Shown in pieces: positions 7,365-59,306 of a stretch of DNA of 61,034 nucleotides; position 1 is the first letter of the stretch; every line of letters starts with the position of its first letter. Both the position numbers and the translations under genes were made by a program. The notes beneath the pieces were generated by a model, which did no database searches, was not told where the DNA came from, and saw only the letters and a list, made by a program, of their open reading frames with translations. The DNA is taken from assembly GCA_030592575.1 (NCBI GenBank), contig JAUVIV010000002.1, positions 1-61,034 of the forward strand, read 5' to 3'. The stretch comes from a bacterium (GTDB lineage Bacteria; Hydrothermota; UBA3073; JACQXS01).

Positions 7365-8668
7365 TAGAAAGATATACAACCCCTGAATTTGAAAAAATAT
7401 GGAGTGATTCATCTAAATATCAGCAGTGGTTAGAAGTGGAACTTGCGGTTCTTGATGCACGTGCTGAACTTGGAGAATTATCACCTGAAATTGCAAAAGA
7501 AATAAGAAGCAAGGCAAAATTTGACCCCGCCCGCATCAAAGAGATTGAAGCCATCACTCACCACGATTTAATAGCATTCCTTGAAAGTGTCGGTGAGTCA
7601 GTTGGTGAACTCTCCGGACAGATACATCTTGGGCTTACCTCCTACGACATAGTAGATACTGCACTTTCATTACTAATGAAAGAAGCAGGCGAAATCATCT
7701 TGAAAGAACTTCGGGAACTAAAAGAAGCTTTAAAACAAAAAGCAATTGACGAGAAAATGACAATTATGGCTGGAAGAACTCACGGTGTTCATGCTGAGCC
7801 TACTTCACTTGGATTAAAGTTCCTTATATGGTATGAGGAGATAAGGCGAAATGAAATCCGATGGTTAGATGCAATAGCTGCTATATCTTATGGCAAAATT
7901 TCAGGTGCCTGTGGCAATTATGCACATATCTCTCCTCAAGTAGAGGAACTTACTTGCAAAAAACTTGGGCTTCTGCCGGCTCCTGTATCAACTCAAGTAA
8001 TTCAACGAGACCGTCATTGCCAATATTTATTTACACTTGCTCTTATTGCGACTTCTTGTGAAAAGATTGCACAGGAAATAAGGCATTCACAGAGAACGGA
8101 GATTCAAGAACTTGAGGAGCCGTTTGCGAGCGGACAAAAAGGCTCATCAGCAATGCCACATAAAAAGAATCCAATAATTTGCGAACGAATTTGTGGACTT
8201 GCAAGAGTTGTGCGAGGTTATACGCAGACAGGATTTCAAAATATTCCATTATGGCAAGAACGAGACATTTCAAATTCCTCTCCGGAACGTGTGATTATAC
8301 CAGATTCTACATCCCTTACTCATTATATGCTGAGAAAGACAAAAGGAGTGATTCAGGGGTTAGGTATTTTACGAGAGAATATGAAGAAAAATATTGAAAT
8401 CACGAATGGACTTATTTATTCCGGTAGGGTTCTTATGGAACTAATGAAAAAAGGATTTGGAAGAAAAGAAGCATATAAGATTGTACAAGGTGCATCTTTT
8501 GAAGCAGATTCAAAGAATAAGCATCTTAAAGAGATTCTGCTTGAAAGGGCGGCTCATGAACCGCCCCTACCATTCTCTGCCGAAGAGATTGAGGACTTTT
8601 TCAACCCTGAGTATTATTTAAGAAATGTAGATTCAGTGTATAAAAGAGTGCTTGGTCACAAAAAATAG
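7361..8668 (+). CDS. purB: adenylosuccinate lyase
   Basis: Fumarate-lyase signature [11 protein letters not shown]; ATG at 7361 forms an ATGA overlap with the tal stop (preferred over TTG at 7331). Confidence 0.9.
8547..8570 (-). repeat. REP-like hairpin inside purB (GTAG-GGGCGG-n8-CCGCCC on the minus strand)
   Basis: GGGCGGCTCATGAACCGCCCCTAC: 6-bp GC stem plus a CTAC tail, a GC island in AT-rich coding DNA; encodes ..RAAHEPPLP.. Confidence 0.35.
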
Positions 8669-9318: not shown

Positions 9319-9378
9319 ATGAATGATTTAGGGGAGTTCTGTGAAAGAAATGCAAATGTCTGCAAATGATTCAATGGG

Positions 9379-9435
9379 CTTCTACCGCACTTTAGTGCAG
9401 GGTAAAAAACCTCAGAGCTAAAGCATAGGTAGAAG
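9379..9435 (+). repeat. family-B REP-like element
   Basis: CTTCTACC-GCACTTTAGTGC-AGGGTA...GAGCTAAAGC..GGTAGAAG; copies at 9592, 10057, 10251 and 51574. Confidence 0.65.
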
Positions 9436-10074: not shown

Positions 10075-10106
10075 AAATGGGATTCTACCGCACTTTAGTG
10101 CAGGGT
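10057..10106 (+). repeat. family-B REP-like element
   Basis: CTCGACTAAAGCCGGGTAGAA..TTCTACCGCACTTTAGTGCAGGGT; supplies the last codons and the TAG stop of ORF 9442..10074. Confidence 0.65.
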
Positions 10107-10122
10107 TTAAATGAGTATATCG

Positions 10123-12570: not shown

Positions 12571-13680
12571 ATGAAAAAGATTTTAATAGTAACCGGTGAG
12601 GTTTCCGGAGACCTACACGGTGCACTTCTAATCAAAGAGCTCAAAAAACTCATTCCGAATTTAAAAGTATTTGGCATAGGAGGCGAAAAACTTAAAGAAG
12701 AAGGAGTAGAGCTTGTACACCATATAAATGATATAGCTGTAGTTGGTATTTTAGAAGTTATCCCAAAGTTTTTTCGTATAAAACAAGCTATGAATACTCT
12801 TTATCAAAAAATGCTCTCAGAACGACCGGATGTATGCTTATTGATTGATTATCCGGGATTTAACTTGAGGTTTGCAAAATTAGCTAAAAAACAAGGTGTC
12901 AAAGTGGTTTATTATATTCTACCTCAGATTTGGGCTTGGGGTAAATGGAGACTCAAGTCAATCCGCCAATTAATAGATAAAGGAATTTCAATTCTTCCCT
13001 TTGAGCGTGAATTTTATAATATAGGAGCAGTTAGCGAACCGCCCATGCAAATTGAGTTCATAGGACATCCACTGCTGGATATAATACAAAAATCAGAAGT
13101 CAGAAACCAAAAATCAGAAACGATAGCACTTCTGCCAGGGTCACGAAAAGATGAAATAAAACGCATCTTACCTATAATGCTTGAATGCGTAAAAGAGATG
13201 CCTGAGTTTGAGTTCGTTCTTCCGATAGCTCCGGGAATCGATAAATCTTGGATTAAAGAATTCGTAGGGGCAATTCGCGAATTGCCCTTAAATCGCATAA
13301 GAATAGTAGAAGGCAAAACTTATGAAATATTAAGAAACTCAAAGCTTGCACTTATCGCTTCCGGAACTGCCACTCTTGAAGCGTGCATACTTGAAGTTCC
13401 AATGATAATAATTTATAAACTTCAATTCCTTTCTTATGTTTTTGGGCGATTACTTGTTAAAACGCAATGGATTGGGCTTCCAAATATAATTGCCGGGAAA
13501 AAAATTGTGCCAGAATTCATTCAATCTAATGCAAAGCCCGAAAAAATTATAAAAGCTGCAAAACAAATATTGAAAACCAGAGAACAGTCAGTATCAGAAT
13601 TAAGAGAAGTAAAAAAGAAACTTGGTTCTACGGGAGCAGTTCACAGAGCAGCTGAAATTTTATATAAATTCATTTTTTGA
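12571..13680 (+). CDS. lpxB: lipid-A-disaccharide synthase
   Basis: N-terminus KILIVTGEVSGDLHGALLIKELK; ..LLPGSR.. and ..ASGTATLE.. motifs; ~369 aa. Confidence 0.85.
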   Translation: MKKILIVTGEVSGDLHGALLIKELKKLIPNLKVFGIGGEKLKEEGVELVHHINDIAVVGILEVIPKFFRIKQAMNTLYQKMLSERPDVCLLIDYPGFNLRFAKLAKKQGVKVVYYILPQIWAWGKWRLKSIRQLIDKGISILPFEREFYNIGAVSEPPMQIEFIGHPLLDIIQKSEVRNQKSETIALLPGSRKDEIKRILPIMLECVKEMPEFEFVLPIAPGIDKSWIKEFVGAIRELPLNRIRIVEGKTYEILRNSKLALIASGTATLEACILEVPMIIIYKLQFLSYVFGRLLVKTQWIGLPNIIAGKKIVPEFIQSNAKPEKIIKAAKQILKTREQSVSELREVKKKLGSTGAVHRAAEILYKFIF

Positions 13681-16093: not shown

Positions 16094-17575
16094 ATGAAAA
16101 GATGGGGATTTTTGATAGTGTTGGGAACTTGCAATTTGTATGGACAATGGGAAGCAGATAAAAGATTAACTGATTATCCCTATCCTAACTATGGTAGCTA
16201 CAATAATGCGTGGACAATAGTAGTGCAGGATACTATGGTGCATATCGTATGGGAACATAAAGAGATAACTAATGGTCCAGGTGAGCTTTATTATATAAGG
16301 TCGAGCAATTCAGGGAGTAGCTTTGAGCAGGATAAACCGCTAACTACAGAGGATTCTCATTGTCCTTCGGTAGCAGTTTCTGGTTCAATAGTTCATGTAG
16401 TTTGGGTAGACAAACGTGATGGTAACTGGGAGATATATTACAAGCGGTCAGTTAATAATGGTGAGACTTGGGGAATAGATAAGAAGTTACTTAATGCCCT
16501 TAACTCATGGTCTCCTTCGATAGCAGTTCGTGATTCAATAGTTCATGTAGTTTGGCAGGATTATCGTGATGACAGCTACCCGGAGATATATTACAAGCGG
16601 TCAGTTAATAATGGTGAGACATGGGAAGCTGATGAGAGACTAACCAATGACTCTGCTTCCTCATATAATCCTTCGGTAGCAGTTTCTGATTCAATAGTTC
16701 ATATTGTTTGGCAAGATTGGCGGGATAAGAACTGGAAAATATATTATAAACGGTCAATAGATGATGGAGAGACCTGGGGGATAGATGAGAGGATAAGTAG
16801 TAATGACCCTGCTTTCTCAAGGTATCCTTCGATAGCAGTTTGTGATTCAATAGTTCATGTGGTTTGGTATGATGAGCGGGATAGCAACAAGGAGATATAT
16901 TACAAGCGGTCAGTTAATAATGGGATACTTTGGGAAGATGATGAGAGGCTAACTAATGATACTGATAGTTCATCGTATCCTTCAATAGCAGTTTGTGATT
17001 CAGCAGTTCATGTAGTGTGGATGGATAATCGGGATGGCAACGAGGAGATATATTACAAGCGGTCAGTTGATAATGGGATACTTTGGGAAACCGACGAGAG
17101 ACTGACTAATGCTGCCTATTTGGCTGATCATGTTTCTGTAGCATGTTGGGATTGTTTTTATGATTATGATGTTCATATAGCATGGACAGATTATCGTAAT
17201 GGCTACCCGGAGATATATTACAAGCATCATAAATGTGAGGGTACAGATGTGAAGGAGAGAGATTCTTCGCCTTCGCCTCAGAATGACAAGTTAGAGATAT
17301 ATCCGAACCCATCTATCGGGAAAATCGTTATTCGTTATTTGTTAAGCGAAAATCGAAACAGTTATACAATTAACAATTTACGATTAACTATTCATGATAT
17401 ATCTGGCAGATTAGTAAAAACACTTTATTCCGGAACGCAGGAAAAAGGTGAACATACAATTAACATAAATAATGTAGGGACACGCCATAGCATGTCTCTA
17501 CCCAAAGGTATTTACTTTGTGAAAATGGAGACAAGTAATTTCAAGATAAAGAAAAAACTGACGATACTAAGATAG
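16094..17575 (+). CDS. BNR/Asp-box repeat beta-propeller protein with T9SS C-terminal sorting domain
   Basis: About 7 repeats of SIVHVVWxDxRDxNxEIYYKRSxxxGxTW (Asp-box SxDxGxTW variants); C-terminus ..GIYFVKMETSNFKIKKKLTILR. Confidence 0.7.
   Translation: MKRWGFLIVLGTCNLYGQWEADKRLTDYPYPNYGSYNNAWTIVVQDTMVHIVWEHKEITNGPGELYYIRSSNSGSSFEQDKPLTTEDSHCPSVAVSGSIVHVVWVDKRDGNWEIYYKRSVNNGETWGIDKKLLNALNSWSPSIAVRDSIVHVVWQDYRDDSYPEIYYKRSVNNGETWEADERLTNDSASSYNPSVAVSDSIVHIVWQDWRDKNWKIYYKRSIDDGETWGIDERISSNDPAFSRYPSIAVCDSIVHVVWYDERDSNKEIYYKRSVNNGILWEDDERLTNDTDSSSYPSIAVCDSAVHVVWMDNRDGNEEIYYKRSVDNGILWETDERLTNAAYLADHVSVACWDCFYDYDVHIAWTDYRNGYPEIYYKHHKCEGTDVKERDSSPSPQNDKLEIYPNPSIGKIVIRYLLSENRNSYTINNLRLTIHDISGRLVKTLYSGTQEKGEHTININNVGTRHSMSLPKGIYFVKMETSNFKIKKKLTILR
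17474..17501. repeat. decayed 28-bp GTAGGGACA..TCTCTAC palindrome inside a T9SS C-terminal domain
   Basis: GTAGGGACACGCCATAGCATGTCTCTAC; same length and termini as the perfect palindromes at 42656 and 43582; encodes VGTRHSMSLP. Confidence 0.5.
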
Positions 17576-17669
17576 TTAAAAAGATAGTCGGATGGTCTTA
17601 TGGTCATATTGTCGTATAGTTGGATGGAGGTTAGCATAGGAGATAGAGAGTTCTCTATAAAAAATAAAC

Positions 17670-17724
17670 GGGTAGGTTGAAGCCCTCGCTTCAACCTGAT
17701 GAGAGCAAAAGCTCTCATCTACCC
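17670..17724 (-). repeat. family-A double-hairpin REP-like element (inverted copy)
   Basis: GGGTAG-GTTGAAGC-cctc-GCTTCAAC..GATGAGAGC-aaaa-GCTCTCATC-TACCC; reverse complement of 51501..51555. Confidence 0.7.
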
Positions 17725-19861: not shown

Positions 19862-20154
19862 TGTCATTGCGAGAAGCAAAGCAACGAAGCAATCTCTTAT
19901 CATACTATTAAAGATTGTTTAGCAGAGCCTGCCTGAGCAAGATTCTTCACGGAGTTTACCCTGAGGCAAAAGTTGAGATTCTTCACTTCGTTCAGAATGA
20001 CAGAGGAAGGGTTCAGAATGACAGCCGAAGGGTTCAGAATGACAGAGGAAAGGTTCAGAGAATTACAGGTGGAGGGCTCAGACTTGTCCTGAGCGGAAGC
20101 GAAGGAATAACAAGTGAAGAGTTCAGAACAACAAACGAATCACTCGCAATGACA
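19862..20154. repeat. composite repeat block bounded by a perfect 12-bp inverted repeat TGTCATTGCGAG / CTCGCAATGACA
   Basis: Inverted repeat at 19862..19873 and 20143..20154; interior 19937..20116 is colinear (inverted) with the insertion in prmC at 56878..57041. Confidence 0.6.
19990..20060 (+). repeat. tandem 21-bp repeat (GTTCAGAATGACAGnnGAAGG), 3 full units plus a partial
   Basis: Units at 19990, 20011 and 20032, with a partial unit at 20053; two units are present in the prmC copy. Confidence 0.8.
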
Positions 20155-41961: not shown

Positions 41962-43362
41962 TTATTTCTTTTCAATCTCTTCTTCTACTTTTCTTTTTGC
42001 TTCTTCCAAAAGTTCTTTACTTTCTTTTCTTAGTTTATGGCTTTCTTGTATCTTATCTGCAATTTGCTTTTGGATTTGTGGTTTGATTAGTGGGATTCTA
42101 ATTTTCTCAAAATCAGAAGGTTTTAAATGAGCAATTATAGCACCTCCTGAAAGTTGCTCTACTTGTAGTTTTGATAGAATGGAATTAAAAATCAAAGCTA
42201 AACATTCTTTTTCAAAATTTTGATATTTTTCTTTAAGAGTAAGCCTTAGAAATGCACTACTTAAAACACCTTTAACATCCTTTTGTAAAACATAACTAAT
42301 TCCAATTGTTCCATCTTTTGTAAATAAGATTTCTCCTTTATGGGGTTGGAAATCACTTTTTATTTCATTAAAATGTTCTTCTGCTATTTTCCTTGAAGTT
42401 TCTTCAATGCCAAAAATTGAAAAATCTGAAACTCTTACAAATTCTTTTCCGTCTTCCGTATAAGCATTTGTTCCAACTTCAATTCCTTTTTTCCAGTTTA
42501 TAATATTTCCAACAACATCAAATCCACCATTATAATTTTCAATCTTTTTAATAATTTCTTTATATTTTGGTTGAAAATATTCAGCATCAAATCTTTTGGC
42601 TCGTTCTACTTCTTTTTTTGTTGTTTCAAATGTGTTGGTTATTTTAAATGTGTTCGTAGGGACAGGTCGCGACCTGTCCCTACAATAATCATCCCCAAAA
42701 ATTTCTTTATTTAACAATTCTTCGGCTTCCTTGTAGAGTTGTTTTGATTGTGTTTGCTTTTGGTGTGCCTTTTTAAATTTTTTTTCAATATCTTTAATAA
42801 TATTGTCAGAAAAATTTGGAAATGGAATATTTAGAAGATAAAACGGTGCTATTTCAGGTTGCAAACCACCATACATTCCTTTATTAATCATTTCTCTACC
42901 ATATTTTGTATTCAGAAAAATAGTTAATAAATATGGATTAATGCTTCCACTTTTTAGGATAAAAGTATGTGATGAAGCAATAACTTGTCTTTCTTCATTA
43001 AACAAACAACACTGACCAAAATTAGCACCAGTTCTTGTAATAAGTATATCTTCTCTTGAAATAAGATTAGATTTCAATTTTTTAGCATGCTCTTGAGATA
43101 TAAAAACTTTATTTGACAAATCTAAAAAAAGAGGTCTTACGTTTTGTGCTCTCAAAAACAAAACATCGTTTTTCACATATTCTCTTTTTATTTCTTTAGG
43201 GTGATATATTTTTACTTCAAAATCTTTTAGTTTTTTGTTGCTTCCTTTTTCTAAAAGAAATTTAATATCTAAATAATCTTTTCTAAAAAACTCAGAATCA
43301 AATCTATGATTATGGCTTTCCGTAATTATGTCACTATATTTTATTATACTTATCTGTGCCAT
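41962..43362 (-). CDS. hsdS: restriction-modification specificity subunit (HsdS-like, two target-recognition domains)
   Basis: Two TRD-like halves, each followed by a helical conserved region (..KQLYKEAEELLNKEIFG.. and ..KLRKESKELLEEAKRKVEEEIEKK); ATG at 43362 lies 2 nt after the upstream stop. Confidence 0.8.
   Translation of the reverse strand: MAQISIIKYSDIITESHNHRFDSEFFRKDYLDIKFLLEKGSNKKLKDFEVKIYHPKEIKREYVKNDVLFLRAQNVRPLFLDLSNKVFISQEHAKKLKSNLISREDILITRTGANFGQCCLFNEERQVIASSHTFILKSGSINPYLLTIFLNTKYGREMINKGMYGGLQPEIAPFYLLNIPFPNFSDNIIKDIEKKFKKAHQKQTQSKQLYKEAEELLNKEIFGDDYCRDRSRPVPTNTFKITNTFETTKKEVERAKRFDAEYFQPKYKEIIKKIENYNGGFDVVGNIINWKKGIEVGTNAYTEDGKEFVRVSDFSIFGIEETSRKIAEEHFNEIKSDFQPHKGEILFTKDGTIGISYVLQKDVKGVLSSAFLRLTLKEKYQNFEKECLALIFNSILSKLQVEQLSGGAIIAHLKPSDFEKIRIPLIKPQIQKQIADKIQESHKLRKESKELLEEAKRKVEEEIEKK
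42656..42683. repeat. perfect 28-bp palindrome GTAGGGACAGGTCGCGACCTGTCCCTAC inside hsdS
   Basis: Exact self-complementarity; identical copy at 43582..43609; translated as CRDRSRPVPT just after the central conserved helix. Confidence 0.95.
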
Positions 43363-43364
43363 AT

Positions 43365-43892
43365 TTATTCCATATTTTGTAAATTGTTTTCGTCTAAATC
43401 CCATTTTAATGGATTGTCTATAATGTATTTACGGATATTATTTAATGATTTATCATTACGGATAATGTGGTCATAAAATGATCTTTGCCATTTGAATTGT
43501 ACCAATCCATTTTGATGTATTGACTTTGATGATGTGGTTTTGAATACACCAATCAATTCCGATAATGATTTTATTTTTACCGTAGGGACAGGTCGCGACC
43601 TGTCCCTACATTTATTATCAAAGTTATTATCAATTACCAATATTCCATGAAAATGATTTGGCATAACTATAAATTCGTCCAAACAAACATAACCATATTG
43701 ATTTTCCAACCATAACCATTGTCTTTTTACAATTTCTCCGTATTCATTTAAAATCATTTTTTCGTTTTCCATTCTCCCAAAATATGCTTCTTTCTCTTTC
43801 GTACAAATGCTTACAAAATAATATCCTTCTTGTGAATAATCATAATCTTTTAACCTGTTTAATTTACGATTTTTTAATTTAGGTTGCAACAT
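43365..43892 (-). CDS. HUH/Y1 single-strand DNA transposase-like protein (RAYT / IS200-like superfamily)
   Basis: ..YDYSQEGYYFVSICTK..; HUH motif MPNHFHGILVI; C-terminal catalytic-Tyr context RKYIIDNPLKW; 1-2 nt spacers to hsdM and hsdS. Confidence 0.7.
   Translation of the reverse strand: MLQPKLKNRKLNRLKDYDYSQEGYYFVSICTKEKEAYFGRMENEKMILNEYGEIVKRQWLWLENQYGYVCLDEFIVMPNHFHGILVIDNNFDNKCRDRSRPVPTVKIKSLSELIGVFKTTSSKSIHQNGLVQFKWQRSFYDHIIRNDKSLNNIRKYIIDNPLKWDLDENNLQNME
43582..43609. repeat. perfect 28-bp palindrome GTAGGGACAGGTCGCGACCTGTCCCTAC inside the Y1 gene
   Basis: Identical to 42656..42683; read in the same codon phase (CRDRSRPVPT) between the HUH motif and the catalytic Tyr. Confidence 0.95.
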
Positions 43893-43893
43893 A

Positions 43894-45939
43894 CTAATTA
43901 CTCCAAAAACTCAGTTTTTGTTTTACAGCCCATTTTTCAAAGGCATACGCAATTTCTGCTAAATCATGTTTTTGAATAAGATGATTATGCTCATCTAGTT
44001 TTCTTTCTCCGGTCTTTTCGTCAATCTCATAAATCTCTTGTCCGGAATTATCTTTCCCTGAATTTTCTGAAACTGCCATAAAAATAGGATAATCTTCAAC
44101 TTTCGGGTTTATTTCATCATCCCATTTTTGAACAAACAGAACAGATGTTTTTGTTCCCGTATGTGGTTTAAAAGTATTTCCATCAAGACCAATAACTGCA
44201 AGCAGTCTTGCTCTTTCCATAATAAAATCTCTGATTCTCTCATCAGAAGTATTATTAAATCTTCCTTGAGGTAACACAATTGCCATTCTTCCACCATCTT
44301 TTAGAAAATCTAAATTTCTTTCAATAAACAAAACATCTCTTGAAATTTTATTTATTTTCTTCCCTTTGTTAAAAGCGACATCATAGTTTGAAATAAGACG
44401 ACTATCTTTTATATCTCCTGCAAAAGGAGGATTTGCCATTACCATATCAAATTTAAATTCTTTCGGATTTTTTGGGTCTTTTGCTAAATCAAGAAGTCTT
44501 TGATAGCCATCATTATATGTTCTCATCCATTCTCTATCTTTTTGTTTTTCCGCCCATCTTGTATAGTCTAAACTATTAAGATGTAAAACATTCGTCCTCC
44601 CATCTCCTGAAATCATATTCAGTGTTCTGGCAACTCTTACAGATTTTTCATCAAAATCAATCCCAAAAACTTTATTTACATAGTCTTTTTGTTCAGAGGA
44701 AAGTTTCTGATTAGAAAAATTAGCAAATTGAGCTTTACCCTGATTTACAAGTTTTTTCCAAACATTAAAAAGAGTATGAACCGTAAAACCACAACTACCG
44801 CAAGCAGTATCAATCATATATTCATTTGGTTGCGGATTTATCATATAAACAGCCATATCAATTACATTTCTCGGAGTAAAATATTGCCCTTTTGCTCCTT
44901 TGGCTGATTTGTTTACAAGATATTCAAAAGCCTCATCAATTACCTGAAGATTAGAATTAAAAAGTTTTACATTTTGCAAAAAACCAACACAAATTTGCAA
45001 ATGATTTTCATCTGTAATCTTAAGAGGTTCTCCTTTTTCAAAAATACCAGGCCACTTATCTTTGGCTTTATTAAATAATTTATTAATTACTTCTTTGGTA
45101 TGATGTGCATCTCCACGACTTCTAAATTCTAATTTTCTAAAACCATCATTGCCAATATTAAGCAACAACAATTCTTTTTCTGTCAATCTGGGATTATCTT
45201 TCTTTGCTTCTTTTAAAAGAACTTCTATTGTAACTCTGTCCTCTGCGCTTTCCATTTCATCAAAAAGTTTTGTAAAAATGAGCTTGAAAACTTCTTCAAA
45301 AACATCAACACCGGCATTAGACAATACTTCGTCTTCCATTTCTTCAATCAAAGATTTTAGAGACTTTCTTTCTTCCGAAAGTCTATCTTTTTGCATTAAC
45401 TCAAAATATGTAAATATCTCATTTTTTACATCATCAATTGTTTCTGTTGCTTTTGGTATATCTGAAAGTGGCTCAAAGTAATTTGGGTCAAGTCTTTCAT
45501 AACAATCAATATCAACACCATTTGTCCAAACTGCAAGCGGGGCACCTGTTGCATTTGTATAACTTTTTAATTGATCTTTACCATCTTTTGCTTTATGTTT
45601 CTTCATTTCAAGAACACAGTAAACACTTGTTTTATCTATTTTATTAAGAATGACAATATCAGCAAGTTTCTTTTCTCTTCCAAAATTAACGGTAAATTCT
45701 ACTTGTATCAAATCTAAAGAATAATCATATTCATTGATGAGTTTATCAATCATCAATTGTCTTACAATCTCTTCCGGTTTAACTTGAATATCCTTTTTTC
45801 TTTTCAAGCATTTAAGAAAATACTTGCCATTTTTCTCAAAGATATTTTTTTCAATTCTATCAATACTTTCAGATGAAAAAATTATCAGGTCGTATTTGCC
45901 AGTAGATTTTATTAATTGTAATATTTGTATATTATTCAT
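43894..45939 (-). CDS. hsdM: N6-adenine DNA methyltransferase (HsdM-like) fused to an N-terminal PD-(D/E)xK-like (HsdR_N-type) domain
   Basis: Gamma-class motifs ..DTACGSCGF.. (motif I) and ..MANPPFAG.. (motif IV); N-terminus ..LADIVILNK..VYCVLEMKKHK..QLKSY..AVWTNG.. resembles a PD-(D/E)xK core. Confidence 0.8.
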   Translation of the reverse strand: MNNIQILQLIKSTGKYDLIIFSSESIDRIEKNIFEKNGKYFLKCLKRKKDIQVKPEEIVRQLMIDKLINEYDYSLDLIQVEFTVNFGREKKLADIVILNKIDKTSVYCVLEMKKHKAKDGKDQLKSYTNATGAPLAVWTNGVDIDCYERLDPNYFEPLSDIPKATETIDDVKNEIFTYFELMQKDRLSEERKSLKSLIEEMEDEVLSNAGVDVFEEVFKLIFTKLFDEMESAEDRVTIEVLLKEAKKDNPRLTEKELLLLNIGNDGFRKLEFRSRGDAHHTKEVINKLFNKAKDKWPGIFEKGEPLKITDENHLQICVGFLQNVKLFNSNLQVIDEAFEYLVNKSAKGAKGQYFTPRNVIDMAVYMINPQPNEYMIDTACGSCGFTVHTLFNVWKKLVNQGKAQFANFSNQKLSSEQKDYVNKVFGIDFDEKSVRVARTLNMISGDGRTNVLHLNSLDYTRWAEKQKDREWMRTYNDGYQRLLDLAKDPKNPKEFKFDMVMANPPFAGDIKDSRLISNYDVAFNKGKKINKISRDVLFIERNLDFLKDGGRMAIVLPQGRFNNTSDERIRDFIMERARLLAVIGLDGNTFKPHTGTKTSVLFVQKWDDEINPKVEDYPIFMAVSENSGKDNSGQEIYEIDEKTGERKLDEHNHLIQKHDLAEIAYAFEKWAVKQKLSFWSN

Positions 45940-51476: not shown

Positions 51477-51500
51477 TTTTACCTCACTTTACTTCACACT

Positions 51501-51555
51501 GGGTAGATGAAAGCCTCTGCTCTCATCTGGTTGAAGCGAGGGCTTCAACCTACCC
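51501..51555 (+). repeat. family-A double-hairpin REP-like element
   Basis: GGGTAGATGAAAGC-ctct-GCTCTCATC-TGGTTGAAGC-gag-GGCTTCAACCTACCC. Confidence 0.7.
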
Positions 51556-51573
51556 GTTTTTTGTTCACTTTTT

Positions 51574-51628
51574 CTTCTACCGCACTTTAGTGCAGGGTAG
51601 AAAACCCTTAGCTAAAGCTGGGTAGAAG
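51574..51628 (+). repeat. family-B REP-like element
   Basis: CTTCTACC-GCACTTTAGTGC-AGGGTAGAAAACCCTTAGCTAAAGCTGGGTAGAAG. Confidence 0.7.
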
Positions 51629-56340: not shown

Positions 56341-57429
56341 ATGGCAAAAACATTCGCTTGTCAATTTGATGATACGTCAAAAAATTTTTCTAAAGAGATA
56401 AGAGGAATTCTTGTTCAAACAACTCAAATCCTTAAAAATAATCATTTCAAAAATCCCTCCAAAGAAGCAATTATACTCGTAGCTTGTGCATTGAAAATAG
56501 ACAAAATATCTCTCTATCTTCATTACAACAAAATTTTATCAGATTTAGAGCAAGCTTCTATATCCAAACTCCTCGCAAGAAGACTTGAGCACGAACCACT
56601 GGAATATTTAACAGGACAGGTAAATTTTATGGGAATTGATTTTATGATTGAACCTCCGATTCTTATTCCAAGACCAGAGACTGAAGTTTTAGTTGAAACT
56701 CTTGTGAAATTAGCAAAAAGTAGAAACGATTCGCAAACCGCTCCTACCATAATATTTGATATAGGAACAGGTTCCGGAATAATCGGAATAACAAGTTTAA
56801 AGTTTTTACCCAACGCAAGAGTTTACGCTTCAGATATAATCGACCTCCACCTTGCCAAAAGAAACGCAATTAAACTTTCCACCTGTCATTCCTTTACTTC
56901 CGCTCAGGACAAGTCTGAGCCCACCTGTCATTCTGAACCCTTCGGCTGTCATTCTGAACGAAGTGAAGAATCTCAATTTTTGCCTCAGGATAAACTCCGT
57001 GAAGAATCTCGCGGTTGTCAGAGTAAGCCCCGTAAAGAGTCTAAACTTAAAATATCTGAAAGAATAAGTTTTTTAAGAAGCGATTTACTGCAATCATTTA
57101 AAAGAAAAGCAGATTTCATTGTATCAAATCCTCCTTATATTTCGAGTTCTGAAATACCCTCACTTCAGCCGGAAATAAAGTTATTTGAATCACATACCGC
57201 ATTAGATGGTGGAGAAGATGGACTATTCTTTATTAGAGAACTAATAAGAACTTCCGGAAATAACCTTAAGAAAAGCGGAATGCTCTTGTTAGAGATTTCC
57301 CCGGAGCAAACTGATACTATAGGAAAAGAAGCTCTAAAGTATTTTGAATCTGTAGAGTTTATAAAAGATTTTTTTGGAAGAACAAGGGTCTTCCTTGCTA
57401 AATATCCAAAAACAGGAACATACTTTTAA
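56341..57429 (+). CDS. prmC: release-factor glutamine N5-methyltransferase PrmC/HemK carrying a 57-codon repeat-derived insertion
   Basis: SAM motif IFDIGTGSGIIG; catalytic FIVSNPPYI; follows prfA as usual; the segment between the two motifs is repeat DNA. Confidence 0.8.
   Translation: MAKTFACQFDDTSKNFSKEIRGILVQTTQILKNNHFKNPSKEAIILVACALKIDKISLYLHYNKILSDLEQASISKLLARRLEHEPLEYLTGQVNFMGIDFMIEPPILIPRPETEVLVETLVKLAKSRNDSQTAPTIIFDIGTGSGIIGITSLKFLPNARVYASDIIDLHLAKRNAIKLSTCHSFTSAQDKSEPTCHSEPFGCHSERSEESQFLPQDKLREESRGCQSKPRKESKLKISERISFLRSDLLQSFKRKADFIVSNPPYISSSEIPSLQPEIKLFESHTALDGGEDGLFFIRELIRTSGNNLKKSGMLLLEISPEQTDTIGKEALKYFESVEFIKDFFGRTRVFLAKYPKTGTYF
56878..57041 (-). mobile_element. 164-bp mosaic repeat element inserted in frame in prmC, flanked by the 7-bp direct repeat TAAACTT
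   Basis: Colinear inverted homologue of 19937..20116 (with one fewer 21-bp unit); TAAACTT at 56871..56877 and 57042..57048; 164+7=171 nt (57 codons), no stop codons. Confidence 0.7.
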
Positions 57430-57566
57430 TCCCATTGGATACTCTCGATTCTCTCGCACTTAAAAACTTGACGAAATATAATTCTATAATAAGCTTTTTA
57501 AAAATAAAAAAACAAAATGCTCTTAACTCAATCCGTAATATACAACAATAATTATACTCTGAATAA

Positions 57567-57630
57567 TGTAGAGGCGAACTCACGTGTTCGCCCAAATCAT
57601 CAAGGCAGACACACAGGTCTGCCCCCTACA
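57567..57630 (+). repeat. family-C double-hairpin REP-like element
   Basis: TGTAGAGGCGAAC-tcacgt-GTTCGCCC..GGCAGAC-acacag-GTCTGCCCCCTACA; near-identical copy at 59244..59306. Confidence 0.75.
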
Positions 57631-57683: not shown

Positions 57684-59152
57684 ATGAAAAGAATATTTAG
57701 TTTTATCTGGATAATTACAGGAACACAATTTATTGTGTCCACACTCGCAATTGCACAGACACCTAATACTTTGTGGACAAAAACTTACGGAGGAGCTTCT
57801 TCTGATAAGGGTTGCTCTGTTCAAGAATGTATAAATGGAGGTTTTATAATCACAGGAAGGACAAGGTCTTTTGGTGCTGGCGATTATGATGTCTATCTTA
57901 TAAGAATAGATGCAAACAGTGATACTCTGTGGACTAAAACTTATGGCGGAAATGGTTGTGATGAGGGTTATTATATTCAAGAATGTACAGATGAGGGCTT
58001 TATAATTACAGGAGCAACAACGTCTTTTGGTGCTGGCTCCTACGATGTCTATCTTATAAGGACAGATTCAAATGGTGATACACTATGGACTAAAACTTAT
58101 GGAGGAACTACTGATGATTGGGGCTGTTCTGTTCAAGAATGTACAGATGAGGGCTTTATAATTACAGGAGCAACAACGTCTTTTGGTGCTGGCTTTTCTG
58201 ATGTCTATCTTATAAGAACAAACGCAGATGGTGATACACTATGGACTAAAACTTATGGAGGAACTACTGATGATTGGAGTAATTCTATAGATAAATGTAC
58301 AGAAGGAGGATTTGTAATTACAGGAACAACAAAGTCTTTTGGTACTGGCTCTTCTGATGTCTATCTTATAAGAACAAACGCAGATGGTGATACACTATGG
58401 ACTAGGACTTATGGTGGAACTAACAATGATGAGGGATGGTCTGTTCAGGAGTGTGCAGGAGGTGGTTTTATAATCACAGGAATGACAAGGTCTTTTGGTG
58501 CTGGCTCCTATGATGTCTATCTTATAAGAACAAACACAGATGGTGATACTTTGTGGACAAGAACTTATGGTGGAACTTGTTGTGAGTATGGCAATTCTGT
58601 AGATAAATGTACAGAAGGAGGTTTTATAATTACAGGAATGACAACTTCTTTTGATGATGGTTATGAAAATGTCTATCTTGTAAGGACAAACTCAGATGGT
58701 GATACACTATGGACACAAATTTACAGTGGAATTGGTTGTGCTTGGGGATGCTCTGTTCAGGAGTGTGCAGGTGGTGGCTTTATAATCACAGGAATGACAA
58801 CGGCTGGCAATAGTGATGTCTATCTTATAAGGATTTCCGAGACAGGAGTGGAAGAAAGAGATTGCTTCACTGACGCTCACAATGACAGGTTGGAAGTATA
58901 TCCGAATCCGTGTAGCAAAAAAACCGTTATTCCTTAAACGAAAATCGTAACGATTTACGATTAACAATTCATGATATATCAGGTAGAATGATTAAAAGTC
59001 TTTATTCCGGGACTCAAGAAAAGGGTGAGCATACAATTCTCCTAAATAATGTAGTGACATGCCATGGCATGTCACTATCTGTAGGCATTTATTTCATCAG
59101 ATTTGAAACAGATGATTTCAAGATAACAAAGAAATTTACAATAATTCGTTAA
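57684..59152 (+). pseudogene. eight-bladed repeat (beta-propeller-like) secreted protein whose T9SS C-terminal domain is out of frame at an A7 tract
   Basis: ORF 57684..58937 stops 12 nt after A7 (58917..58923); the shifted frame is open from 58916 and encodes the rest of a T9SS domain to 59152; one extra A restores NRYSLNENRNDLRLTIHD.., matching the paralogue at 17290..17575. Confidence 0.7.
59051..59078. repeat. 28-bp near-perfect palindrome GTAGTGACATGCCATGGCATGTCACTAT inside the T9SS C-terminal domain
   Basis: 22-bp perfect core; same position in the domain as 17474..17501; encodes VVTCHGMSLS. Confidence 0.6.
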
Positions 59153-59219: not shown

Positions 59220-59243
59220 CAAAAAAAACACTCCGAAAATAAA

Positions 59244-59306
59244 TGTAGGGGCGAACCCACGTGTTCGCCCAAATCATCAAGGCAGACACACAGGTCTGCC
59301 TCTACA
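59244..59306 (+). repeat. family-C double-hairpin REP-like element
   Basis: TGTAGGGGCGAAC-ccacgt-GTTCGCCC..GGCAGAC-acacag-GTCTGCCTCTACA. Confidence 0.75.

Follow-up and report, generated by a model that had tools for sequence, protein, structure and literature searches.

A palindrome shared by a Y1 gene and hsdS: a probable REP-like hairpin with a copy inside the reading frame of its RAYT-like enzyme

Why would two adjacent bacterial genes for unrelated proteins carry the same perfect palindrome, read in both as the same ten amino acids? The question is raised by a 61,034-nt stretch of a Hydrothermota genome (GenBank assembly GCA_030592575.1, contig JAUVIV010000002.1, positions 1 to 61,034 of the forward strand), which was analysed as a whole and is referred to here as the window. 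One copy of the palindrome lies in hsdS, encoding the specificity (S) subunit of a type I restriction–modification (R-M) system with its two target recognition domains (TRDs). The other lies in a neighbouring gene for a small HUH enzyme of the Y1 type (hereafter Y1). In the reading that we favour, the palindrome is probably the cognate hairpin of this Y1 protein, similar to the repetitive extragenic palindromic (REP) sequences and their REP-associated tyrosine transposases (RAYTs), and the norm in the family would be flanking copies plus one copy in a frame-tolerant, disordered loop of the enzyme. We therefore class the locus as a REP/RAYT-type system, whose peculiarity is the additional hairpin copy inside the open reading frame (ORF) of the enzyme itself. 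The two copies and their host genes are:

43365..43892, minus strand: Y1 HUH enzyme gene, RAYT-like, 175 aa, HUH at H80/H82, invariant Y156 and N160
43582..43609, no strand assigned: Y1-internal palindrome copy, GTAG-headed, codons 96-105 (CRDRSRPVPT), in the predicted loop between the HUH strand and the next helix
41962..43404, minus strand: type I specificity (S) subunit gene with two TRDs, hsdS-like ORF
42656..42683, no strand assigned: hsdS palindrome copy, in-frame 10-codon insertion where the central conserved helix meets TRD2; the Y1 stop lies ~680 nt upstream

The palindrome, GTAGGGACAGGTCGCGACCTGTCCCTAC, is perfect over 28 bp and occurs in two exact copies, 926 bp apart and with 0 mismatches. 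No further match with up to three mismatches was found elsewhere in the window, and none in 100 shuffles (0 expected). The identity between the copies extends to 30 nt (C, the 28-mer and A on the plus strand), which on the coding minus strand (TGT...ACG) makes ten whole codons, CRDRSRPVPT in both ORFs; the sequence outside this block is unrelated between the two genes. As single-stranded DNA (ssDNA), each copy is predicted to form a hairpin with 12 bp in the stem and 4 nt in the loop, at -13 kcal/mol and with z-scores of -6.7 and -8.1. A preliminary description of the locus had reported the identical pair and its shared translation, and both were recovered by the exact match search and the ORF translations. 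It had also supposed that each insertion was compensated to keep the frame, for which there is no need, because the shared block of 30 nt is exactly ten codons. Chance or an assembly artefact as the source of the pair was ruled out, as the frames are intact and the unit also occurs in isolate genomes (Segetibacter) and long-read chromosomes.

The Y1 enzyme and its internal hairpin

The HUH motif of Y1 (NHFHGIL) spans residues 79-85, and the palindrome-coded segment lies between this motif and Y156 of the YIxxNP helix. Among 67 aligned homologues, H80, H82, Y156 and N160 are invariant, giving the HUH motif and C-terminal tyrosine helix (YxxxNP) of a RAYT, while Y140 (in SFYDHIIR) varies between Tyr and His across the family. 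The palindrome had been placed between the HUH motif and the catalytic tyrosine, and this position stands, as it precedes both tyrosines; the choice of Y140 as the catalytic residue does not, as the invariant one is Y156. An AlphaFold2 model of Y1 (predicted local distance difference test, pLDDT, 88.2; predicted template modelling score 0.81) consists here of the HUH strand (80-87), a low-confidence coil (88-109, with pLDDT <50 at 95-98) and a helix (110-127). Because of this coil, the palindrome-encoded peptide is predicted to be a disordered surface loop. The top Foldseek match of the model is E. coli TnpA_REP bound to a REP hairpin (4er8_A, E = 6e-7, template modelling scores 0.56/0.59), followed by IS200/IS605 transposases, so the predicted fold is TnpA_REP-like. 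In line with this, the protein matches the NCBIfam model REP_Tyr_transpos at 1e-16.

Searches with Y1 returned 4088 relatives at E <= 1e-5. In the best 120 of these, the segment that links NHxHGIL to KIKSLSELIG is nearly always xRDRSRPVPT or VGTGRDLSLx, which are the two stop-free frames of the palindrome. Others among the same 120 carry close variants (VGNGRDRSL, VGAGRDLPL, RTGHDLSL, RDNPRIVPT), and a few miss the segment. At the DNA level, 77 of 80 metagenomic Y1 loci contain, 250-290 nt into the ORF, an internal palindrome whose stem is 10 bp or longer, and 11 of 12 genome loci encoding a substantial Y1 match have one; in the genome Y1 loci, the exact 28-mer stands in ORF phase 0 or phase 1. 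Since the same DNA is read in one stop-free frame by some homologues and in the other by the rest, what is conserved is the DNA hairpin and not a peptide. A Gly/Arg/Pro-rich linker had been proposed at this position in Y1 homologues, correctly so, and it is the palindrome itself that encodes it. The same residues encoded by non-palindromic DNA were looked for among Y1 homologues and not found. The accompanying idea of recurrent, sporadic hairpin insertion has to be given up, as the hairpin is a near-universal feature of the family that covaries with flanking copies.

These observations also bear on whether the element works mainly as RNA or peptide, either as an mRNA hairpin tuning expression of Y1 or its operon or as a functional Gly/Arg/Pro-rich linker. 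The stable stem within two co-transcribed genes and the constant presence of the linker in the Y1 family would fit such a role. We nevertheless consider it very unlikely, as the two frames yield unrelated peptides, the peptide is predicted to be disordered (pLDDT <50 at residues 95-98), no known RNA family (Rfam) was found in the window, and copies elsewhere are mostly extragenic and in either orientation.

The hairpin varies, and its arms vary together. About 39 core variants occur in the 80 metagenomic Y1 loci, nearly all of them perfect palindromes, with the canonical ACAGG core (n=17) and an AACGG core (n=12) among them. When 34 distinct 28-mers were compared, 93% of cells were paired, and at 11 of the 14 stem pairs both partners had changed in a compensatory manner; neither any of 500 shuffles nor a slid register approached these values. 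Furthermore, the variant is shared with copies around the gene: 31 of 77 loci repeat it outside the Y1 ORF, at 30-180 nt on the upstream side and/or 3-130 nt on the downstream side, and at the variant loci L127-L132 the flanking copies likewise match the internal variant. At the family level, the gene is thus flanked by cognate GTAG-headed palindromes, as in RAYT systems. The core variant partly tracks the Y1 protein tree, with nearest neighbours sharing a core in 27 of 63 cases against 12.6% expected, and the same core is retained down to 45% protein identity. For the Y1 gene of the window, no upstream flanking copy was found; its sole neighbouring copy is the downstream one in hsdS.

Some members of the family lack the internal copy and keep the flanking ones (five at one locus and one at another, L217). 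A filled and an empty site can be compared directly in the proteins P0021 and P0031 (L130:10291-10326 versus L217:3016-3531), which share 84% identity and are set apart by a clean 42-nt (14-codon) indel holding a 36-bp extended palindrome. In addition, the surroundings of the 28-mer in Y1 genes are often irregular, with half copies, tandem left arms, a frameshift (L055) or a deletion next to it (L072), which shows that the DNA at this site is recombinationally active.

Copies in hsdS and in other genomes

The hsdS copy lies immediately after the central conserved helix (..LLNKEIFGDDY) and before TRD2. Its ten residues are absent from all 119 best homologues (45-67% identity), and the protein of the window is ~10-11 residues longer than these, the extra length falling exactly after the central conserved helix ends and before the first TRD2 strand begins. 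With the flanks joined without the insert, the empty site would read ...GATGATTAT followed directly by AACACATTT.... The alignment thus agrees with the junction given in the preliminary description and answers its question of whether these codons are lineage-specific: the hsdS copy is a lineage-specific, in-frame insertion of ten codons. The nearest linker of hsdS able to tolerate it would have received a 30-nt unit identical to the Y1-internal copy, and this unit takes the role of the usual downstream flanking copy of the Y1 gene; the linker may have served as the site because there is no intergenic DNA downstream of Y1.

Such an insertion could also have arisen without the enzyme, by template switching or short-patch gene conversion of the 30-nt block from Y1, in which case the hairpin would still belong to the Y1 family and its spread would be passive. 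The identity of exactly 30 nt between copies less than 1 kb apart and the lack of a target duplication are in keeping with this, and the half copies and tandem arms at the Y1 site look like slippage products. The unrelated flanks, by contrast, offer no homology to guide conversion, and the same unit is found at hundreds of unrelated sites in other genomes, making passive copying, in our view, improbable.

The extent of this spread was assessed with a scan for the 22-nt core in one genome per species, which returned at least 120 stretches from roughly nine or more phyla. Those listed include Patescibacteria, Nitrospinota, Bacteroidota (with the isolates Segetibacter aerophilus and Pontibacter ruber), Gammaproteobacteria, Fibrobacter, Spirochaetia, Calditrichia, Ignavibacteria, Acidimicrobiales and others, with a locus GC content of 30% to 67%, and several genomes hold many canonical copies among the matches listed. 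Full GTA...TAC (GTAG/CTAC) ends are present in 89 of the 131 canonical-core copies listed, and the flanks beyond are unrelated. The copies are mostly extragenic, as the median ORF spanning them is 137 aa versus 376 aa for randomly chosen positions of these loci, and flanking and extragenic copies occur in either orientation. In-frame copies within Pfam-confirmed genes were found in a Ser/Thr kinase domain, KdtA, YchF and a cytochrome-domain (PSCyt1) protein. Among the copies listed, the two stop-free phases are used ~69:53. The curated plasmid and phage collections gave no match to the 30-mer.

Several copies stand out in their own right. Third-phase copies (...GQVATCP...) at six loci have GCAG, GAAG or CGAG in place of GTAG and so lack the TAG, which points to selection against a stop codon, and some of the ORFs from GC-rich genomes may be spurious. 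At L005, L025, L034 and L066 (Poriferihabitaceae chromosome OZ243042.1), the palindrome sits inside a larger dispersed repeat with conserved flanks, and an 88-nt tandem array (L011:1977-2174) takes it through all three frames of one ORF. At five loci, copies are exactly centred in much longer palindromes whose arms differ from copy to copy, which suggests either insertion into the tips of pre-existing hairpins (e.g. terminators) or outward growth by template switching.

The in-frame copies in unrelated genes (kinase, KdtA, YchF, cytochrome-domain protein) could be taken to mean that the palindrome is an independent selfish or host-generated element, not mobilised by Y1, that gathers in permissive loops of which the Y1 linker is one hotspot. 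Six viral contigs that carry the hairpin with no Y1 in view point the same way. This is hard to reconcile with the occupation of the same Y1 site in 77 of 80 loci, with the variant shared by internal and flanking copies of a locus, the latter close to the Y1 ORF, and with the partial agreement of variant and Y1 tree, and we regard it as distinctly unlikely.

Under the favoured reading of a cognate RAYT-like hairpin, the palindrome would fold into a hairpin on ssDNA, as the substrates of E. coli TnpA_REP and IS200/IS605 TnpA do. By the same analogy, Y1 would recognise the stem and its GTAG/CTAC foot, nick there via its tyrosine and rejoin the DNA elsewhere. Short hairpin units would be copied or moved in this way and would mostly settle between genes; within genes, only stop-free, frame-preserving copies would survive. 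The copy embedded in the ORF may keep enzyme and substrate inseparable during horizontal transfer, so that one 28-mer could persist across phyla while the protein diverges to ~45% identity.

Several points weigh against this reading. Perfect palindromes and apparently compensatory changes can also arise by template-switch 'quasipalindrome correction', without selection on an enzyme site, and for this reason covariation alone is no proof that an enzyme recognises the stem. Y1 scores below the curated cut-offs of NF047646 (RAYT; 61.1 versus 80 bits) and PF01797 (Y1_Tnp; 20.5 versus 23), because of which we place it in a related RAYT subfamily, as judged from sequence, and not in the curated equivalog. 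No target-site duplication was found, direct 2-nt repeats flanking 9 of 88 copies, about as expected by chance, and there is no clear target motif, the base immediately outside CTAC being a purine in ~74% of copies. Moreover, 12 of 88 copies are centred in longer palindromes, four of them with flank arms of 7-12 nt. The viral contigs mentioned above count here as well. Finally, the hsdS and Y1 copies, both intragenic, are the only canonical ones in the 61 kb, which gives no sign of active spread in this genome.

A bolder form of the favoured reading, in our eyes rather unlikely, would make Y1 and its ORF hairpin a self-contained replicator moving across phyla. The ORF copy would act as a master template from which 28-30-nt cassettes are placed into nearby ssDNA, and the hairpin would let the enzyme cut or rearrange its own gene. 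If true, in-frame ten-codon insertions in other proteins would derive from the ORF master copy, and self-cutting of the Y1 gene would provide self-limitation or an on/off switch. The pair would then be the smallest known mobile unit of enzyme plus substrate, and a natural mutator by peptide insertion.

The surrounding cassette and other repeats of the window

Upstream of Y1 lies a methyltransferase (M) gene, forming an M–Y1–S cassette with Y1 and hsdS:

43894..45939, minus strand: type I-like N6-adenine methyltransferase gene (hsdM), domains HSDR_N_2 + N6_Mtase + Eco57I

The Y1 gene starts 1 nt after the hsdM stop, and the real hsdS start is probably the ATG at 43362, 3 nt past the Y1 stop; hsdM, Y1 and hsdS thus abut without intergenic space. 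Together they form a 4-kb island of 28-30% GC, flanked by pnp and an FGE-sulfatase gene. No hsdR was found near the island, and neither a second hsdS nor a spare TRD cassette is present nearby, as a single hsdS stands between Y1 and the FGE-sulfatase gene. The M and S proteins resemble components of MADS, with scores below the cut-offs. The slot between M and S is variable: homologous cassettes hold two RhuM genes (L213), an AAA_15/21 ATPase (L215), or RhuM and a frameshifted Y1 (L055). Because other cargo occupies the same slot, Y1 is a guest in it and not a component of the R-M system. A general linkage of Y1 to type I R-M systems was ruled out, as just four of the 86 other Y1 loci, L055 and three weak cases, have R-M genes nearby. 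A defence role for Y1 was likewise rejected, with no PADLOC match for it.

The arrangement had prompted the proposal of a programmed rearrangement, in which Y1-mediated joining of the two copies deletes 926 bp and fuses the N-terminal part of Y1 to TRD2, or switches hsdS in some other way. The shared phase would make the fusion in-frame, and the deletion in the homologue at L072 starts beside the hairpin. The phase is weak evidence, though, and less meaningful than had been thought: because only two phases are stop-free and these are used ~69:53, two copies share a phase ~51% of the time. With neither the Tyr helix nor TRD1, the fusion would have no apparent function; a switching system would need an alternative hsdS or TRD cassette, and there is none; and the scarcity of R-M genes near Y1 homologues speaks against it too. 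We thus hold a programmed rearrangement to be extremely improbable. A metagenome scan with a degenerate pattern for both parental and both recombinant junctions gave 0 matches, the parental sites included, so the source organism is not in the scanned collection.

Diverged relatives of the palindrome were sought with the pattern GTAGGG-N16-CCCTAC, allowing up to two mismatches, which gave 6 matches in the window against 0.49 expected. The following lie in coding sequence:

13264..13291, no strand assigned: diverged 28-bp relative GTAGGGGCAATTCGCGAATTGCCCTTAA, in-frame VGAIRELPL in lpxB
17474..17501, no strand assigned: diverged 28-bp relative GTAGGGACACGCCATAGCATGTCTCTAC, in-frame VGTRHSMSL in the C-terminal sorting domain of a secreted repeat protein
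59051..59078, no strand assigned: GTAGTGACATGCCATGGCATGTCACTAT, the same diverged element as at 17474, in a paralogous protein, with pairing kept by two-arm changes

A weaker case of a diverged palindrome is found in purB at 8543. When LpxB and YchF were aligned to solved structures, neither showed a clear gain in length at the palindrome.

The window also contains other repeats. A 57-nt GC-rich element with two hairpins and GGTA...CTACC-like ends, in three copies (2941-2997, 17667-17723 and 51498-51554, at least one of them intergenic), is a separate small repeat family. A GTAG-headed double hairpin occurs in two copies that are 97% identical (57565-57623 and 59242-59300), and a CTACC...GGTAG hairpin family in three (9373-9408, 10076-10111 and 51568-51603). 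GTAG-tagged hairpins seem to be plentiful in this genome, although a single Y1 gene is in view. Furthermore, an inverted 88-nt pair (19937-20059 and 56925-57012), 37 kb apart and 94% complementary, contains 21-nt tandem units (GTTCAGAATGACAG...). The GC skew of the window changes sign at ~22-26 kb, coinciding with a switch in gene orientation, and may mark a replication landmark or only gene-strand bias.

Comparison with known systems

Two known kinds of system can be set aside. In IS200/IS605 insertion sequences, TnpA acts on subterminal hairpins (2VJU, 2XM3, 2F4F), and Y1 shares their superfamily and the logic of a hairpin on ssDNA. Here, however, there are no distinct left and right ends and no sign of multicopy transposition of a whole element, and the hairpin lies inside the gene. 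The same palindrome flanks the gene in either orientation, and identical proteins occur in one genomic context, so an IS200/IS605 element was rejected. The phase-variable type I hsdS shufflons, such as pneumococcal ivr/SpnD39III, use integrase-type tyrosine recombinases, several hsdS/TRD cassettes and inverted repeats. The repeat in hsdS at a TRD boundary and the adjacent gene for a recombination enzyme are reminiscent of these, whereas the present locus has one hsdS, one repeat in it, an HUH enzyme and no spare TRD, and a shufflon was therefore rejected as well.

GTAG-tagged palindromic repeats are reportedly found across prokaryotes as species-specific, extragenic families. They resemble the present element in the GTAG at the 5' foot of a GC-rich stem and in forming a family of variants; they differ in that they are not known to include an ORF-embedded copy or a sequence identical across phyla. 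The Rickettsia palindromic elements (RPEs) are said to be in-frame insertions of ~100-150 bp in protein genes, confined to Rickettsia, and we know of no enzyme dedicated to them. An in-frame palindrome that adds a surface peptide (to hsdS here, and to the kinase, KdtA and YchF elsewhere) is alike in both, and the hsdS copy, in frame in a conserved gene and absent from its orthologues, is of the RPE type in this respect. The present unit is 28-30 bp, linked to Y1 and mostly extragenic. Because size and taxon differ, this is a resemblance in behaviour and not membership.

The closest comparison is with the REP/RAYT systems themselves, among the most abundant and least understood repeat systems of bacteria, such as E. 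coli TnpA_REP (YafM) with its REPs and bacterial interspersed mosaic elements (BIMEs), and the REPINs of Pseudomonas. These reportedly combine a small Y1 HUH enzyme of the TnpA_REP fold with GC-rich, GTAG-headed palindromes, copies of which flank the enzyme gene, covary with the enzyme lineage and are mostly extragenic, all as seen here. Several differences stand out. A copy of the hairpin lies inside the enzyme's own ORF in ~96% of members. The unit consists of one perfect palindrome of 28 bp, headed by GTAG on either strand, in place of an imperfect REP or a doublet. Lastly, one variant is identical across many phyla, and the protein scores below the curated RAYT cut-off. The underlying kind, a REP/RAYT system with RPE-like coding insertions, is already known. 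To our knowledge, there is no earlier description of a RAYT family with a REP embedded in the ORF, of a single 28-bp REP that is identical across phyla, or of the in-frame spread of such a unit into genes, nor do we know of any demonstration of REP spread in vivo. The present family offers a compact and easily synthesised enzyme–hairpin pair for direct tests of REP mobilisation, with filled and empty sites, half copies and coding insertions visible in the genomes. It also explains why the peptide 'VGTGRDLSL / RDRSRPVPT' keeps turning up as a contaminant of protein families when metagenomes are annotated, and points to a route by which short disordered loops may be added to proteins, here to a specificity subunit at its helix–TRD2 junction. 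What sets it apart among REP/RAYT-type systems is an enzyme gene that carries its own putative substrate, a 28-bp hairpin identical from Patescibacteria to Bacteroidota, Nitrospinota and Gammaproteobacteria.

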